The position numbers and the translations under genes were made by a program. From the sequence record NC_052662.1: a stretch of DNA of 64,000 nucleotides; one strand, given 5' to 3'. The notes under the pieces are model-generated. The model had not been told where the DNA came from and made no database searches. It saw only the letters and a program-made list of their open reading frames with translations. Below, in pieces: positions 6,800-9,175 of the stretch (position 1 is the first letter of the stretch; each line of letters starts with the position of its first letter). The stretch is from Escherichia phage Mt1B1_P17.

Positions 6800-7006
6800 A
6801 ATAAAATCCTCCTAAACTTTATCTTAACATATAAAAAATAATAAGTCAAGTTTTATTCAATAGATAGCAAAAAGCCTCCAATAAGGAGGCTAATAAATAC
6901 TGTTAATTTGAAATGCTTTATTATAATTGTGCGTTAAGGAGTCGCACCCCTCCATCTTAGAAGGAACCAGGCAAGGTCTTCAAAGATACCGCTGGCAAGC
7001 GATATT

Positions 7007-7085
7007 TGGAGGCGGGAATTGGATTTGAACCAATGATCTCCAGCATATGAAACTGGCGAGGACGACCAGACTCCTCTATCCCGCT
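7007..7085 (-). tRNA. tRNA-Met (anticodon CAT; could also be Ile-lysidine or initiator)
   Basis: cloverleaf read by hand: anticodon stem CCAGT/GCTGG, loop TTCATAT, T-arm ATTGG-TTCAAAT-CCAAT, CCA encoded; position 1-72 mismatched. Confidence 0.7.
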
Positions 7086-7091
7086 ATTAGG

Positions 7092-7161
7092 TATCCCGTG
7101 CTGGATTCGAACCAGCATCACAATAAGTTGTGGAACTCTTATCCTGTAAGTCTAACGGGAA
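7092..7161 (-). tRNA. atypical tRNA-like element (possible pseudo-tRNA)
   Basis: perfect T-arm GCTGG-TTCGAAT-CCAGC and 6/7 bp acceptor stem, but only about 70 nt and no canonical anticodon arm could be folded. Confidence 0.3.
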
Positions 7162-7163
7162 AT

Positions 7164-7237
7164 TGGTTGTTTCGACAAGAATCGAACTTGTGTCTCACGA
7201 TTATCAGTCGTGGGTTCTACCATTGAACTACGAAACA
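7164..7237 (-). tRNA. tRNA-Ile (anticodon GAT)
   Basis: acceptor TGTTTCG/CGAAACA, D-arm GTTC..GAAC, anticodon stem CACGA/TCGTG with loop CTGATAA, T-loop TTCGATT, CCA encoded. Confidence 0.8.
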
Positions 7238-7243
7238 TTAAAT

Positions 7244-7320
7244 TGGTCGGAATTGCAGGATTCGAACCTGCGACCCTACGCTCCCAAAGCGTATGCTCTA
7301 CCAAACTGAGCTAAATTCCG
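7244..7320 (-). tRNA. tRNA-Pro (anticodon TGG)
   Basis: acceptor CGGAATT/AATTCCG, D-arm GCTC..GAGC, anticodon stem TACGC/GCGTA with loop TTTGGGA, T-arm GCAGG-TTCGAAT-CCTGC, CCA encoded. Confidence 0.8.
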
Positions 7321-7325
7321 TTATA

Positions 7326-7401
7326 TGGCTGGTCTGTCTGGATTTGAACCAAACCTACGACAGTCAAAGTGTCGTGTGCTACCTGACTACACTACAAACC
7401 A
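7326..7401 (-). tRNA. tRNA-Gln (anticodon TTG)
   Basis: acceptor TGGTTTG/CAGACCA (one G-U pair), anticodon stem CGACA/TGTCG with loop CTTTGAC, T-loop TTCAAAT, CCA encoded. Confidence 0.7.
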
Positions 7402-7499
7402 ATAAATCATTTAATGAAGGGCAACCAGAAGAGGTGTGAGAGAAGGAGAAAACCATGAGTAAAAGAGAAAGTTTTCTGGCAACCCTTTATTAAATAATT

Positions 7500-7573
7500 T
7501 GGAGCGTTCTACGAGGATCGAACTCGTGCCGCCGACTTGGAAGGACGGAATGCTACCGCTACACCAAGAACGC
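7500..7573 (-). tRNA. tRNA-Gly (anticodon TCC), tentative
   Basis: acceptor GCGTTCT/AGAACGC, T-arm ACGAG-TTCGATC-CTCGT, anticodon loop CTTCCAA with one T-T mismatch in the stem, CCA encoded. Confidence 0.55.
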
Positions 7574-7584
7574 CCTACCTCTTT

Positions 7585-7613
7585 ACTATACTACATTTTA
7601 CTATTGGTTGTCA
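7585..7613 (-). promoter_or_regulatory. sigma70-like promoter (TTGACA, 17 nt spacer, TATAGT) reading into the tRNA sub-cluster
   Basis: CTATTGACAA motif copy on the minus strand, about 35 nt upstream of the tRNA-Gly 5' end. Confidence 0.5.
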
Positions 7614-7887
7614 ATAGTTTTATTGAGTGGGACAGTGACGAGTATCCCATTGGGTGACTAGCCCTACGTTCGGTAAGCTAACTTAAAATAATACAAAACC
7701 AAAGTCAAATATTATTCTTCGTTGCTGTCGATGGGAGAGCCGCTTCTTCTTTTGCCCCATCCAACCCTACTCCGGTCAAGTTTCAGGTAACTCTTTTTGT
7801 GATCAACACAATACTAAGAACACTGTCTTTCGAGCAGACCTTGTGCACAGGATACGACGATCAATCACAGTGCTCTTAATGTTGTGT

Positions 7888-7962
7888 TGGTGCTCCCACT
7901 CTGAATCGAACAGAGATCCACGGATTACAAAACCGTTGTAATAGCCATTATACTATAGGAGC
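7888..7962 (-). tRNA. tRNA-Thr (anticodon TGT), tentative
   Basis: acceptor GCTCCTA/TGGGAGC, T-arm CTCTG-TTCGATT-CAGAG, anticodon loop TTTGTAA on a 4 bp stem with one U-U pair, CCA encoded. Confidence 0.5.
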
Positions 7963-7968
7963 AAAGCT

Positions 7969-8045
7969 GGGACTCGGCAGGATTCGATACCTGCAATTCC
8001 AGAAGCCTCTTGGCGACTGGGGGTTTACCTTAACTCTACAAGTCC
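7969..8045 (-). tRNA. atypical tRNA-like element with 8-nt T-loop
   Basis: 7 bp acceptor stem (GGACTTG/CGAGTCC) and T-arm GCAGG-TATCGAAT-CCTGC, but the central region folds as an extended hairpin, not a canonical anticodon arm; no CCA. Confidence 0.3.
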
Positions 8046-8052
8046 ATAATTC

Positions 8053-8138
8053 TGGCGATGAGTATAGGATTTGAACCTATATCGTTCTTTCGAACACGGA
8101 TTAACAGTCCGCCGCTTAAACCATTCAGCCAACTCATC
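8053..8138 (-). tRNA. type II (long variable arm) tRNA, anticodon loop reads GTT
   Basis: acceptor GATGAGT/ACTCATC, anticodon stem GCGGA/TCCGT with loop CTGTTAA, 15-nt variable arm hairpin GTTCGAAAGAAC, T-arm ATAGG-TTCAAAT-CCTAT, CCA encoded. Confidence 0.5.
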
Positions 8139-8144
8139 TTAATT

Positions 8145-8232
8145 TGGTGGTGAGTGATGGAGTCGAACCACCCGAATCGCAATGATAACAGATTTACAGT
8201 CTGCCCCGCTACCCCTACGGAATTAACTCACC
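8145..8232 (-). tRNA. tRNA-Tyr (anticodon GTA), type II
   Basis: acceptor GGTGAGT/ACTCACC, anticodon stem GCAGA/TCTGT with loop CTGTAAA, long variable arm, T-arm GGTGG-TTCGACT-CCATC, CCA encoded. Confidence 0.7.
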
Positions 8233-8362
8233 TAAATACTAATATTTAAATTCTTTTTAAAATAGCCAGTGTTCACACCACTAACTATGAGTTATCGGTA
8301 AGATGGTGGAGGCCATCTGCCGAAAGTTTACTCTATTAAAGTAAGCTATATTAAAAAGAACT

Positions 8363-8448
8363 TGGCGGTAGATGTAGGACTCGAACCTACACGCCGTTTC
8401 CGACTACAGTTTAGCAAACTGTCGTGGCTACCATTTCACCAATCTACC
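8363..8448 (-). tRNA. tRNA-Ser (anticodon GCT), type II
   Basis: acceptor GGTAGAT/ATCTACC, anticodon stem ACAGT/ACTGT with loop TTGCTAA, long variable arm, T-arm GTAGG-TTCGAGT-CCTAC, CCA encoded. Confidence 0.8.
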
Positions 8449-8452
8449 AATC

Positions 8453-8543
8453 TGGCGGAAGGAGGGAGAGTCGAACTCCCAAGGCTCTTTCAAGCTCGGC
8501 GGTTTTCAAGACCGTTTTCGTCGCCACGTCGATTTGCCCTTCC
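8453..8543 (-). tRNA. tRNA-Ser (anticodon TGA), type II
   Basis: acceptor GGAAGGG/TCCTTCC, anticodon loop CTTGAAA, long variable arm, T-arm GGGAG-TTCGACT-CTCCC, CCA encoded. Confidence 0.7.
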
Positions 8544-8551
8544 ATACTTAT

Positions 8552-8580
8552 AATCTAACATAAAATAATGTTAGTTGTCA
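8552..8580 (-). promoter_or_regulatory. sigma70-like promoter (TTGACA, 17 nt spacer, TAGATT) upstream of the tRNA-Ser pair
   Basis: third copy of the CTATTGACAA motif on the minus strand. Confidence 0.4.
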
Positions 8581-8777
8581 ATAGTTTTTTAAAACATTTT
8601 ACCATGAATGGTGACTCCACCAACCCCCGTTCTCAACGAACGGTGCTCTTCGAGCATTTATGTCTTCTAATATAACCGTGGCCTTTGTTTATAATGTCTG
8701 ACATACTTGCCTCATTCTCTGCCACCATGATCAGTAGTGGGTTCAAATCACTTGAGCTAATTCATGTTAAAATGTTC

Positions 8778-8852
8778 TGGTGTCTTTACAAGGAATCGAA
8801 CCTTGACTAAGAGTTTAGAAGACTCCTGTGCTATCCATTACACCATAAAGAC
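8778..8852 (-). tRNA. tRNA-Arg (anticodon TCT)
   Basis: acceptor GTCTTTA/TAAAGAC, D-arm GTGT..CAC, anticodon stem GGAGT/ACTCT with loop CTTCTAA, T-arm CAAGG-TTCGATT-CCTTG, CCA encoded. Confidence 0.8.
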
Positions 8853-8854
8853 GT

Positions 8855-8929
8855 TGGTGGCCCTGGCTGGTTTCGATCCAGCTACCTATCGGTTATGAGC
8901 CGACAGCTCTCCCATTGAGCTACAGGGCC
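8855..8929 (-). tRNA. tRNA-Met (anticodon CAT; second CAT tRNA)
   Basis: perfect acceptor GGCCCTG/CAGGGCC, D-arm GCTC..GAGC, anticodon stem GTCGG/CCGAT with loop CTCATAA, T-loop ATCGAAA, CCA encoded. Confidence 0.7.
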
Positions 8930-9133
8930 ATAAATGTGGTAACAGAGACGCTGACGATTGTAGAGAACCGCTACATTCTCTAAGACCAAGCCCAACTTTC
9001 AGCGTAAAAGTTCTTGAGCCGAGACTATTCCTTTTCCTCTTTGGTAGCTAACCTCTGAAGAAGTAGTCTCTAACACTACCGCAGTGCAAGCCCCTCTTAA
9101 CAAAAGTCAACGACCCTGTTACCACACTTGATG

Positions 9134-9167
9134 AACGTATCCTAACATATGAAGGATACGTTTGTCA
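9134..9167 (-). promoter_or_regulatory. promoter-like TTGACA box overlapping a 9-bp inverted repeat (possible operator)
   Basis: fourth CTATTGACAA copy (plus 9162..9167); downstream element is the palindrome AACGTATCC-N11-GGATACGTT (9134..9162); -10 is weak. Confidence 0.35.
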
Positions 9168-9175
9168 ATAGTTAT

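Follow-up and report, generated by a model that had tools for sequence, protein, structure and literature searches.

In bacterial transfer RNAs (tRNAs), long variable arms are restricted by textbook rule to the leucine, serine, tyrosine and selenocysteine (Sec) isotypes. A tRNA array at positions 7007–8929 of the window, by which we mean the whole 64,000-nt stretch of Escherichia phage Mt1B1_P17 (NC_052662.1) analysed here, raises the question of what such an arm is doing on a tRNA whose anticodon is that of asparagine. The array, all features of which discussed here lie on the minus strand, comprises 11 canonical tRNAs, the long-arm tRNA-Asn(GUU) at 8053–8138, and two tRNA-like elements, A (7090–7161) and B (7969–8045). 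The phage from which the window comes is a lytic, phAPEC8-like Phapecoctavirus (Stephanstirmvirinae) coliphage; the 2.3 kb around the finding are 99.8% identical to Escherichia phage WPEC4 and 98–99% identical to many Phapecoctavirus genomes. A first-pass annotation of the sequence had singled out the long-arm tRNA for its anticodon, and A and B for the absence of a canonical anticodon arm. Its premise that a long arm is normally the mark of a Leu, Ser or Tyr tRNA is correct for bacteria, and the outcome that it had named beforehand as speaking against it, software giving the three elements ordinary arms and ordinary identities, did not occur.

The long-arm tRNA-Asn and its virus-restricted family

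ARAGORN calls an 86-nt tRNA-Asn(gtt) at 8053–8138, the Rfam tRNA model RF00005 matches it with 62 bits against a gathering score of 29, and a tRNAscan-SE annotation of a close relative lists the same gene, in agreement with the anticodon and long arm first read by hand. The molecule has the complete cloverleaf, and the ARAGORN drawing coincides with the minimum free energy (MFE) fold computed by ViennaRNA, with a 7-bp acceptor stem, a 3-bp D stem, a T arm, G73 and an encoded CCA. Segment by segment, it reads GAUGAGU UG GCU GAAUGGUUUA AGC G GCGGA CUGUUAA UCCGU GUUC GAAA GAAC GAU AUAGG UUCAAAU CCUAU ACUCAUC G CCA. The anticodon arm is GCGGA-CUGUUAA-UCCGU, with the anticodon at 8103–8105, and the extra arm (GUUCGAAAGAACGAU) begins right after nucleotide 43 with no spacer. 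Specifically, the 15-nt variable region (8081–8095) forms a 4-bp GUUC/GAAC stem capped by a GAAA tetraloop, followed by three unpaired nucleotides, GAU, a structure found by folding, covariation and RNAalifold. The variable region of the tRNA exceeds 10 nt and folds into a separate stem-loop under selection, which makes it class II, and its anticodon places it outside the Leu, Ser, Tyr and Sec limit of bacterial class II isotypes.

Apart from the arm, the molecule closely follows E. coli tRNA-Asn (asnT/U/V/W), for which we used a 76-nt reference with an exact match annotated as tRNA-Asn in 5,425 of 5,426 complete genomes. Positions 26–43 are identical, including the U33-G34-U35 context of queuosine and the U36-A37 context of t6A, and G73 is shared. 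The two differ in the variable region (15 nt, with a 4-bp stem and a GNRA loop, versus 5 nt), in the D arm (a 3-bp stem and a 10-nt loop versus a 4-bp stem) and, for the window's copy, in the first acceptor pair (G1:C72 versus U1:A72). The long variable arm, the 3-bp D stem and the enlarged D loop are held in common with bacterial class II tRNAs, the spacing of the arm being nearest to tRNA-Tyr and the D arm nearest to Ser and Cys, but the anticodon and acceptor end are those of Asn, without the A73 of Tyr and Leu and without the G2:C71 and 5–7-bp arm of Ser. According to ARAGORN, this is the sole Asn tRNA of the window's array.

The extra arm is under selection. We aligned 23 family members that have a 15-nt variable region and found that 99.3% of cells are in standard pairs, with a covariation score of 0.766 versus 0.18 in shuffled alignments, a value reached by none of 500 shuffles. 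All four pairs of the extra arm have changed on both sides, and 98.9% of their cells are paired; when partner columns are slid by one to three positions, pairing drops to 34–45%. In addition, RNAalifold predicts the arm from this alignment unprompted. Four-nucleotide loops cap 73 of the 91 arms that could be parsed, at least 60 of these being GNRA and 41 GAAA alone. We also observed that the three unpaired nucleotides behind the arm stem have an A at their central position (alignment column 57, window ~8082) in all 23 sequences and that the first arm pair is G:C in 21; a tertiary contact may account for this.

The family is widespread in phages. The 86 nt match 714 phage records by blastn, 224 of which cover at least 80% of the query, mostly from phages of Salmonella, Escherichia, Klebsiella, Enterobacter and Proteus. 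ARAGORN finds 85–86-nt Asn(GTT) tRNAs in EmilieFrey (Justusliebigvirus), vB_EcoS-26175IV (Epseptimavirus, T5-like) and Citrobacter phage Merlin (Moonvirus, T4-like), and 83–86-nt long-arm Asn tRNAs in the BASEL phages Bas30, Bas32 and Bas33. The phage groups represented in the family are T5-like, T4-like, Stephanstirmvirinae and jumbo phages. We scanned IMG/VR with a pattern consisting of the Asn anticodon arm and a T loop 16–26 nt downstream, which matched 109 stretches. Together, the IMG/VR, phage and genome loci yield about 100 distinct long-arm Asn sequences of 82–94 nt, on contigs of up to 476 kb, and at least three other tRNAs lie within 3 kb at 83% of the IMG/VR loci. The same pattern, applied to one genome per species for 185,579 species, matched only 29 stretches, and the true long-arm cases among them are mostly in tRNA arrays or on contigs of metagenome-assembled genomes. 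Among these are chromosomes of Verrucosispora and Micromonospora (L118, L119, L123, L140) with arrays of 23–36 tRNAs, the largest exceeding 30, that include an 89–90-nt long-arm Asn(GTT) with U1:A72; presumably these are the tRNA arrays of mobile elements. Nothing similar occurs in the 5,426 complete E. coli genomes. The near absence of the architecture from cellular genomes suggests that something virus-specific maintains it.

In Escherichia phage W22 (PV159336.1, 52150–52320), an EmilieFrey-like long-arm Asn only 75.6% identical to the window's is directly followed by an element B 97.7% identical to the window's, a mosaic that suggests recombination between tRNA modules.

Long arms on unexpected isotypes are not confined to Asn. 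Bas33 (HildyBeyeler) encodes an 87-nt tRNA-Thr(TGT) (L512:16775–16861) whose long variable arm is GGA-GUAA-UCC followed by four unpaired nucleotides, and near-full-length matches to it occur in about 103 phage records, mostly of T5-like Salmonella and Escherichia phages, as well as in Aeromonas phage Ah1. Compared with E. coli ThrU, its anticodon arm retains the CUG/CAG and UAAUC|A motifs. Arrays with a long-arm Asn also hold long-arm Ile(TAT) (11 cases, many with a CAGAUUAG-like arm loop), Thr(TGT), Trp(CCA) of the Erwinia-phage type, Lys(TTT), Glu(TTC), Met, Gly and Pro tRNAs; this sample is biased to contigs that carry a long-arm Asn (examples are L020:9355–9446, L040:4387–4473, L125:4198–4287 and L049:4743–4831).

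On the agreement of the software calls, the covariation and the distribution, we conclude that 8053–8138 is a genuine tRNA-Asn(GUU) isoacceptor on a class II scaffold, predicted to be functional and a member of a large, virus-restricted family; the tRNA and the family stand on solid ground. Many GenBank records already carry the gene under the label tRNA-Asn, and those annotations hide a distinct structural class. A search of the full-text literature, with most subscription journals outside its scope, found no paper on a class II tRNA-Asn or a parallel tRNA-Thr in phages.

We explain the locus as a whole, with moderate confidence, by a class II tRNA that is charged with asparagine and would sustain the decoding of Asn codons, with its arm as a proposed shield against nucleases and with A and B as accompanying tRNA-like RNAs. 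Among the rival explanations, the one that survives best takes the extra arm to be a neutral relic of a Tyr- or Ser-like class II ancestor, altered through anticodon and discriminator changes or through recombination, on a tRNA that supplements the Asn supply of an AT-rich phage; the arm would then be kept solely since its removal would break the fold. Several features fit such a descent: the Tyr-like spacing of the arm, with three unpaired 3′ nucleotides, the position of the gene next to a tRNA-Tyr with a similar acceptor stem (GAUGAGU in Asn, GGUGAGU in Tyr), and a D arm resembling those of Ser and Cys. Use of Asn codons in the phage is somewhat above that of the host. From the identity rules (PMC9976931), two changes would suffice to turn Tyr (GUA, A73) into Asn (GUU, G73). 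However, the family contains several distinct arm geometries, among them (0,3), (1,4) and a Ser-like (3,1) class, and the Asn-typical U1:A72 is found in 72% of its members instead of the G1:C72 of Tyr and Ser, which suggests repeated acquisition or long-term maintenance and not one accident. The recurrence of the same architecture on Thr(UGU), Lys(UUU), Ile(UAU), Trp and other tRNAs of phage arrays, and its near absence from cells, likewise stand against a relic, and we regard this origin as possible but rather unlikely. The nearest neighbours of the D arm are mixed (Ser 25, Cys 20, then many others) and therefore do not choose among a Tyr, a Ser or an Asn-plus-insertion origin.

Elements A and B

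Elements A and B are not decoding tRNAs. As first noted by eye, neither has a canonical anticodon arm, which ARAGORN, Rfam and the MFE fold bear out: ARAGORN makes no call for either element even in -ps mode, Rfam gives no match at E ≤ 10, and neither element is called in the public records inspected. Both fold into a cloverleaf whose central arm closes into a hairpin with 4 nt in its loop, with folding z-scores of −2.7 for A and −3.0 for B; they are tRNA-like RNAs. Element A has a 6-bp acceptor stem with a U/U mismatch, a D arm, the central hairpin CACAA-CUUA-UUGUG and a canonical T arm, as seen in its fold and in a family alignment. Element B has a 7-bp acceptor stem, a mini D arm, the central hairpin CCAG..GCC-AAGA-GGC..CUGG and no encoded CCA, and its T loop does have the 8 nt originally counted, UAUCGAAU.

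Fold, alignment and annotation identify B as a homolog of the T5 RNA that is listed in the GenBank record of that phage as 'rna3, putative tRNA-like RNA'. The two have in common the 5′ motif GTAGAGTTAAG(G)TAAACC, an ATTG linker, an 8-nt T loop of the form YATCRAAT, a closed central hairpin and a position right after tRNA-Asn, while the sequences of the central hairpin and the acceptor stem differ through compensating changes, and B lacks the ACCA end of rna3. An element of this type directly follows a tRNA-Asn, whether type I or long-arm, in T5, Bas30, Bas32, Bas33, EmilieFrey and Phapecoctavirus. When four distinct sequences are aligned, 95% of their cells are paired and both sides have changed in 7 of 15 pairs, and the central hairpin is always closed although its sequence is wholly different between lineages.

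Element A occurs in 76 phage records, mostly of Phapecoctavirus. Its distant relatives are found in the Vequintavirinae A7_1 and LTH01, right after tRNA-Tyr, and in the siphovirus phiEB49. Lineages differ in the central arm, which has either 5 bp capped by a 4-nt loop or else 7 or 6 bp capped by a 3-nt loop, and the 3′ end is ACCA in the relatives but ACCU in the window's copy. The design, acceptor, D and T arms around a closed central hairpin, is the same as that of the T5 tRNA-like RNAs; A nevertheless forms a separate family (Vequintavirinae, phiEB49), whose only RNA annotation is 'tRNA-Val' in phiEB49. Scans of IMG/VR with short motifs for relatives of A and B returned mostly chance matches, and structural filtering left Phapecoctavirus, T5-like phages, Vequintavirinae and phiEB49.

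A and B could be seen as decaying tRNA pseudogenes with no function of their own. They lack an anticodon loop and fail ARAGORN and Rfam, the window's copies have no encoded CCA, the tail of A varies among close relatives (ACCU, ACAU), and the phiEB49 member carries a tRNA annotation. Decay is hard to reconcile with the retention of both elements across phage subfamilies, where the acceptor, T and central stems show compensatory changes, with a central arm that always closes despite complete sequence turnover, and with the constant place of B behind tRNA-Asn in all of the phages named above, and we consider it improbable. Judged by their sequences, the long-arm tRNA-Asn, A and B are instead conserved families with compensatory changes, neither one-offs nor decayed genes. 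The spacing of 2–8 nt between A or B and the neighbouring tRNAs suggests tRNA-like processing; both would probably be cut from the same transcripts by tRNA-processing enzymes and could function as processing punctuation or as nuclease decoys.

Amino-acid identity and the role of the extra arm

In E. coli, the anticodon together with G73 makes up Asn identity, which can be moved into a different tRNA (PMC9976931). The corresponding set for asparaginyl-tRNA synthetase (AsnRS), G34, U35, U36 and G73, is complete in 8053–8138, and G73 is present in 105 of 106 family members. A long arm together with G73, which 8053–8138 also has, is in turn the recognition core of seryl-tRNA synthetase (SerRS) and was taken as Ser identity by Mukai et al. 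(PMC5389517). For this reason we compared the acceptor ends of the family with those of other tRNAs encoded at the same loci. In a set of 106 distinct long-arm Asn tRNAs, pair 1:72 is U:A in 72%, pair 2:71 is C:G in 49% and position 73 is G in 99%; the values for 117 type I Asn tRNAs are 76%, 56% and 97%. By contrast, 152 Ser tRNAs have G:C at 1:72 in 93%, G:C at 2:71 in 88% (both in 82%) and G73 in 66%. Tyr tRNAs (78) have G:C at 1:72 in 94%, G:C at 2:71 in 71% and A73 in 97%, and Leu tRNAs (118) have G:C at 1:72 in 61%, C:G at 2:71 in 67% and A73 in 100%. The acceptor-end profile of the long-arm family is thus practically equal to that of type I Asn, the canonical profile, and unlike that of Ser.

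The remaining elements can be compared in the same way. The extra arms of the family have a 3–4-bp stem and 3–4 unpaired 3′ nucleotides, a Tyr-like geometry, whereas those of Ser have 5–7 bp and usually one unpaired nucleotide; the window's copy, with its 4-bp stem, three unpaired nucleotides and A2:U71, has neither the Ser-type arm nor the Ser-type combination of G1:C72 and G2:C71. The TyrRS set, A73 and GUA, is absent, the tRNA having G73 and U36, and in E. coli tRNA-Ser, G73 is listed as acting against LeuRS and TyrRS (PMC9976931). The U1:A72 pair of the GatCAB route is replaced by G1:C72 in the window's copy and is not required because E. coli has AsnRS. From the host-identical anticodon arm and the family's acceptor ends, we consider it likely that 8053–8138 is charged with asparagine by host AsnRS, through G34-U35-U36 and G73, and decodes AAC and AAU; this is a strong inference.

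Ser as the main identity was rejected on the acceptor ends and arm geometry of the 152 Ser tRNAs. In its fullest form, the alternative holds that SerRS charges the tRNA wholly or partly, ignoring the anticodon, and places serine at Asn codons, a deliberate mistranslation like that of nematode nev-tRNAs. The long arm and G73 count among the major elements for SerRS (PMC5389517, PMC9976931), the arm has the same total length as that of the phage's own Ser(GCT), and the window's copy combines them with G1:C72 and C11:G24, so that some serylation is possible, a point that weighs against purely asparaginyl charging. Yet A2:U71 replaces the G2:C71 conserved in bacterial tRNA-Ser, G1:C72 and G2:C71 occur together in only 12% of the long-arm family, the short arm stems and longer unpaired 3′ segments are not those of Ser, and serylation needs neither a host-identical anticodon arm nor a retained U1:A72. 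A proteome-wide substitution of Ser for Asn is, moreover, hard to square with conservation in hundreds of lytic phages, and we judge such a role highly unlikely.

The nearest precedents for class II-type tRNAs with anticodons outside Leu, Ser and Tyr are the nematode nev-tRNAs (PMC3333845) and the bacterial allo-tRNAs (PMC5389517), which differ from the phage tRNA-Asn in scaffold and in assigned identity. The nev-tRNAs are eukaryotic and, according to the title of the report, concern an alternative genetic code for leucine (PMC3333845). The allo-tRNAs have an acceptor/T branch of 8/4 or 9/3 and a Ser-like identity (PMC5389517), whereas the phage tRNA has a 7/5 branch and the full Asn set, and is encoded by a virus.

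Why would a phage carry an asparagine tRNA at all? The PARIS nuclease AriB cuts E. coli tRNA-Lys(UUU) as well as tRNA-Thr(UGU) and, more weakly, tRNA-Asn(GUU) between nucleotides 40 and 41, at the site U36AAUC|C41, and the Lys, Thr and Asn tRNAs of T5 jointly neutralise PARIS (PMC12409363). P2 Old cuts the anticodon stem on both strands in tRNAs with paired CNG motifs and A37, including Asn(GUU) (PMC12445682). As host tRNA-Asn is cut by both nucleases, a phage-borne Asn tRNA is expected as a replacement, and it stands in one block with Tyr and Thr in the window and with Lys, Tyr and Thr in EmilieFrey. We propose that the long-arm tRNA would keep Asn decoding going once host tRNA-Asn is depleted and that the extra helix, abutting nucleotide 43, could be a steric shield against nucleases holding on to the D loop and the upper part of the anticodon stem. 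A phage tRNA shielded in this way could retain the host-identical, optimally decoded anticodon arm and would not have to mutate it as T5 does. That the arm shields the tRNA from anticodon-stem-cutting nucleases is a tentative suggestion, made as a testable hypothesis.

A two-allele pattern fits the shield. At the same loci of T5-like phages, a type I tRNA with a diverged anticodon arm alternates with a long-arm tRNA whose anticodon arm is host-like. Specifically, the Asn and Thr tRNAs of T5 are type I with diverged anticodon arms, while the long-arm Asn tRNAs of Bas30, Bas32 and Bas33 and the long-arm Thr(UGU) of Bas33 have host-like anticodon arms in which the motifs read by the nucleases are retained. 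Bas33, which has no Lys(UUU), was rescued from PARIS by T5 tRNA-Lys alone, whereas Bas34 also needed T5 tRNA-Asn (PMC12409363). We considered Bas34 as a negative test of the shield and rejected it, its long-arm Asn not being intact. In Bas34 (SelmaRatti, L511:12598–12681), the annotated 77-nt 'tRNA-Asn' leaves out the 5′ end of a long-arm Asn gene that has three mismatches in its acceptor stem (GGGTCGT versus ACCCGCT) and no ARAGORN call, and no rna3-like element follows it. This broken gene may explain why Bas34 needs T5 tRNA-Asn against PARIS.

Nuclease-resistant phage tRNAs described so far (T5 Lys, Thr and Asn against AriB, phage Thr against Old, T5 Tyr against retron-Eco7 and Septu) are copies of depleted tRNAs, like the window's Tyr-Asn-Thr block. 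They carry base substitutions in the anticodon stem-loop or variable loop, whereas the window's Asn has a host-identical anticodon arm and an added helix, and its resistance is putative. The window's tRNA-Thr(TGT) (7888–7962), called by ARAGORN and Rfam, is type I, and we observed a U31/U39 mismatch that shortens its anticodon stem; a shortened stem is one of two features that give phage Thr tRNAs resistance to P2 Old (PMC12445682).

Several observations count against the shield and the replacement role. The long-arm Asn retains the CNG motifs and the UAAUC|C site and, if the arm has no steric effect, would be as cleavable as host tRNA-Asn, itself only a secondary, weakly cleaved substrate of AriB (PMC12409363). 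Phage arrays also contain type I Asn tRNAs that share this anticodon arm (a scan of IMG/VR gave at least 120 matches, with at least three neighbouring tRNAs at 47% of loci), so that a host-like anticodon arm implying a long arm is not a rule. The family reaches into environmental and jumbo phages, beyond the minority of its members for which a host and its defences are known, and the inference from Bas33 and Bas34 is confounded by other differences between the genomes. The phage uses Asn codons only about 1.2 times as often as E. coli does. The same comparison led us to discard codon supply as the explanation, ACA (3.4 times) and AGA (2.8 times) fitting it better than Asn.

A broader extension of the shield proposal would be that long-arm grafting is a recurrent, convergent counter-defence that armours Asn(GUU), Thr(UGU), Lys(UUU) and perhaps Ile(UAU) and others against the Toprim nucleases AriB, P2 Old and their relatives, with T5 rna3/B and A in the same anti-nuclease toolkit; this we regard as speculative. 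The idea that the long-arm Asn, A and B are mainly decoys or competitive inhibitors of tRNA-targeting nucleases such as Septu/retron PtuAB, and not translators, draws on the cleavage of the tRNA-Tyr variable arm by Septu and retron-Eco7 (PMC13096335), on the Tyr-like geometry of the Asn arm and its place next to tRNA-Tyr, on the tRNA-like shape of A and B, which keep compensatory changes and are incapable of decoding, and on the suggestion of the AriB authors that overexpressed viral tRNAs may act as inhibitors (PMC12409363), but the Asn tRNA retains every decoding and charging feature (U33, GUU, A37, G73, CCA) and has no other Asn tRNA beside it in the array, making this very improbable.

The tRNA array and what the finding means

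The array as a whole matches its first reading closely. ARAGORN finds 10 tRNAs on the minus strand of 7007–8929, the long-arm Asn among them, and Rfam RF00005 finds 11, adding the class II tRNA-Tyr(GTA) (8145–8232, A73), matched over 8148–8232 with 39 bits and annotated in WPEC4 and ASO2A. The class II tRNA-Ser(TGA) (8453–8543, 91 nt including CCA) is matched only by the tRNA-Sec model, with 37 bits, below the threshold of that model, and is further recognised by hand folding and by the tRNAscan-SE annotation of phage ASO2A, which shares 98.5% identity with the window over its tRNA region and lists both Ser-TGA and 'tRNA-Asn-GTT'. With these sources combined, all 11 canonical tRNAs listed by the first-pass annotation are recovered, in addition to the long-arm Asn. 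Both ARAGORN and Rfam call the class II tRNA-Ser(GCT) (8363–8448, 86 nt), tRNA-Arg(TCT) (8778–8852), tRNA-Gly(TCC) (7500–7573), tRNA-Gln(TTG) (7326–7401), tRNA-Pro(TGG) (7244–7320) and tRNA-Ile(GAT) (7164–7237).

The same two programs call the remaining pair of tRNAs, at 7007–7085 and 8855–8929. Both do have the CAT anticodon for which they had been read as Met twice, but they are probably not both elongator Met: one is probably an initiator-like Met and the other an Ile2 (CAT). The former, of 79 nt with an A1/C72 mismatch, has a counterpart annotated as tRNA-fMet in EmilieFrey, and the latter is Met according to ARAGORN and tRNA-Ile(CAT) according to tRNAscan-SE in ASO2A.

Judging by sequence motifs, transcription of the array appears to start at three sigma-70-like promoters and to end at a single terminator. 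The promoter-like sites, each with a perfect TTGACA (at 9168, 8581 and 7614) within the context CTATTGACAA, are P1 (9139–9168, TTGACA-18-TAGGAT), ahead of the CAT and Arg tRNAs; P2 (8552–8581, TTGACA-18-TAGATT), ahead of Ser, Ser, Tyr, Asn, B and Thr; and P3 (7585–7614, TTGACA-18-TATAGT, 11 of 12 matches), ahead of Gly, Gln, Pro, Ile, A and Met. A hairpin with a T tract resembling an intrinsic terminator (6873–6891), annotated as a terminator in ASO2A, closes the array.

Some spacers of the array are themselves structured. Compared with dinucleotide shuffles, the minus strand folds with z-scores of −5.2 at 7402–7499, −3.5 at 8233–8362, −3.4 at 8582–8777 and −4.6 at 8930–9138. The T5 record annotates stable RNAs without assigned function within its tRNA region, and the structured spacers may be stable non-tRNA RNAs like those annotated there as RNAI, RNAIII, RNAIV and RNAX. 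On the plus strand, antisense in the Gln–Gly spacer, we read by eye a 12-codon open reading frame (7443–7493; ATG AGT AAA AGA GAA AGT TTT CTG GCA ACC CTT TAT TAA) with AAGGAG upstream at a proper distance.

A conserved, covarying long arm on a tRNA with the full Asn identity set occurs in hundreds of phages of unrelated families and in almost no cells. Bringing the AsnRS determinants and the main SerRS determinants together in one molecule, it is a natural test of identity rules. The two-allele pattern in T5-like phages provides a testable hypothesis for a new escape from tRNA-cutting immunity, which would be relevant to the choice of phages for therapy and to the design of nuclease-proof or orthogonal tRNAs.

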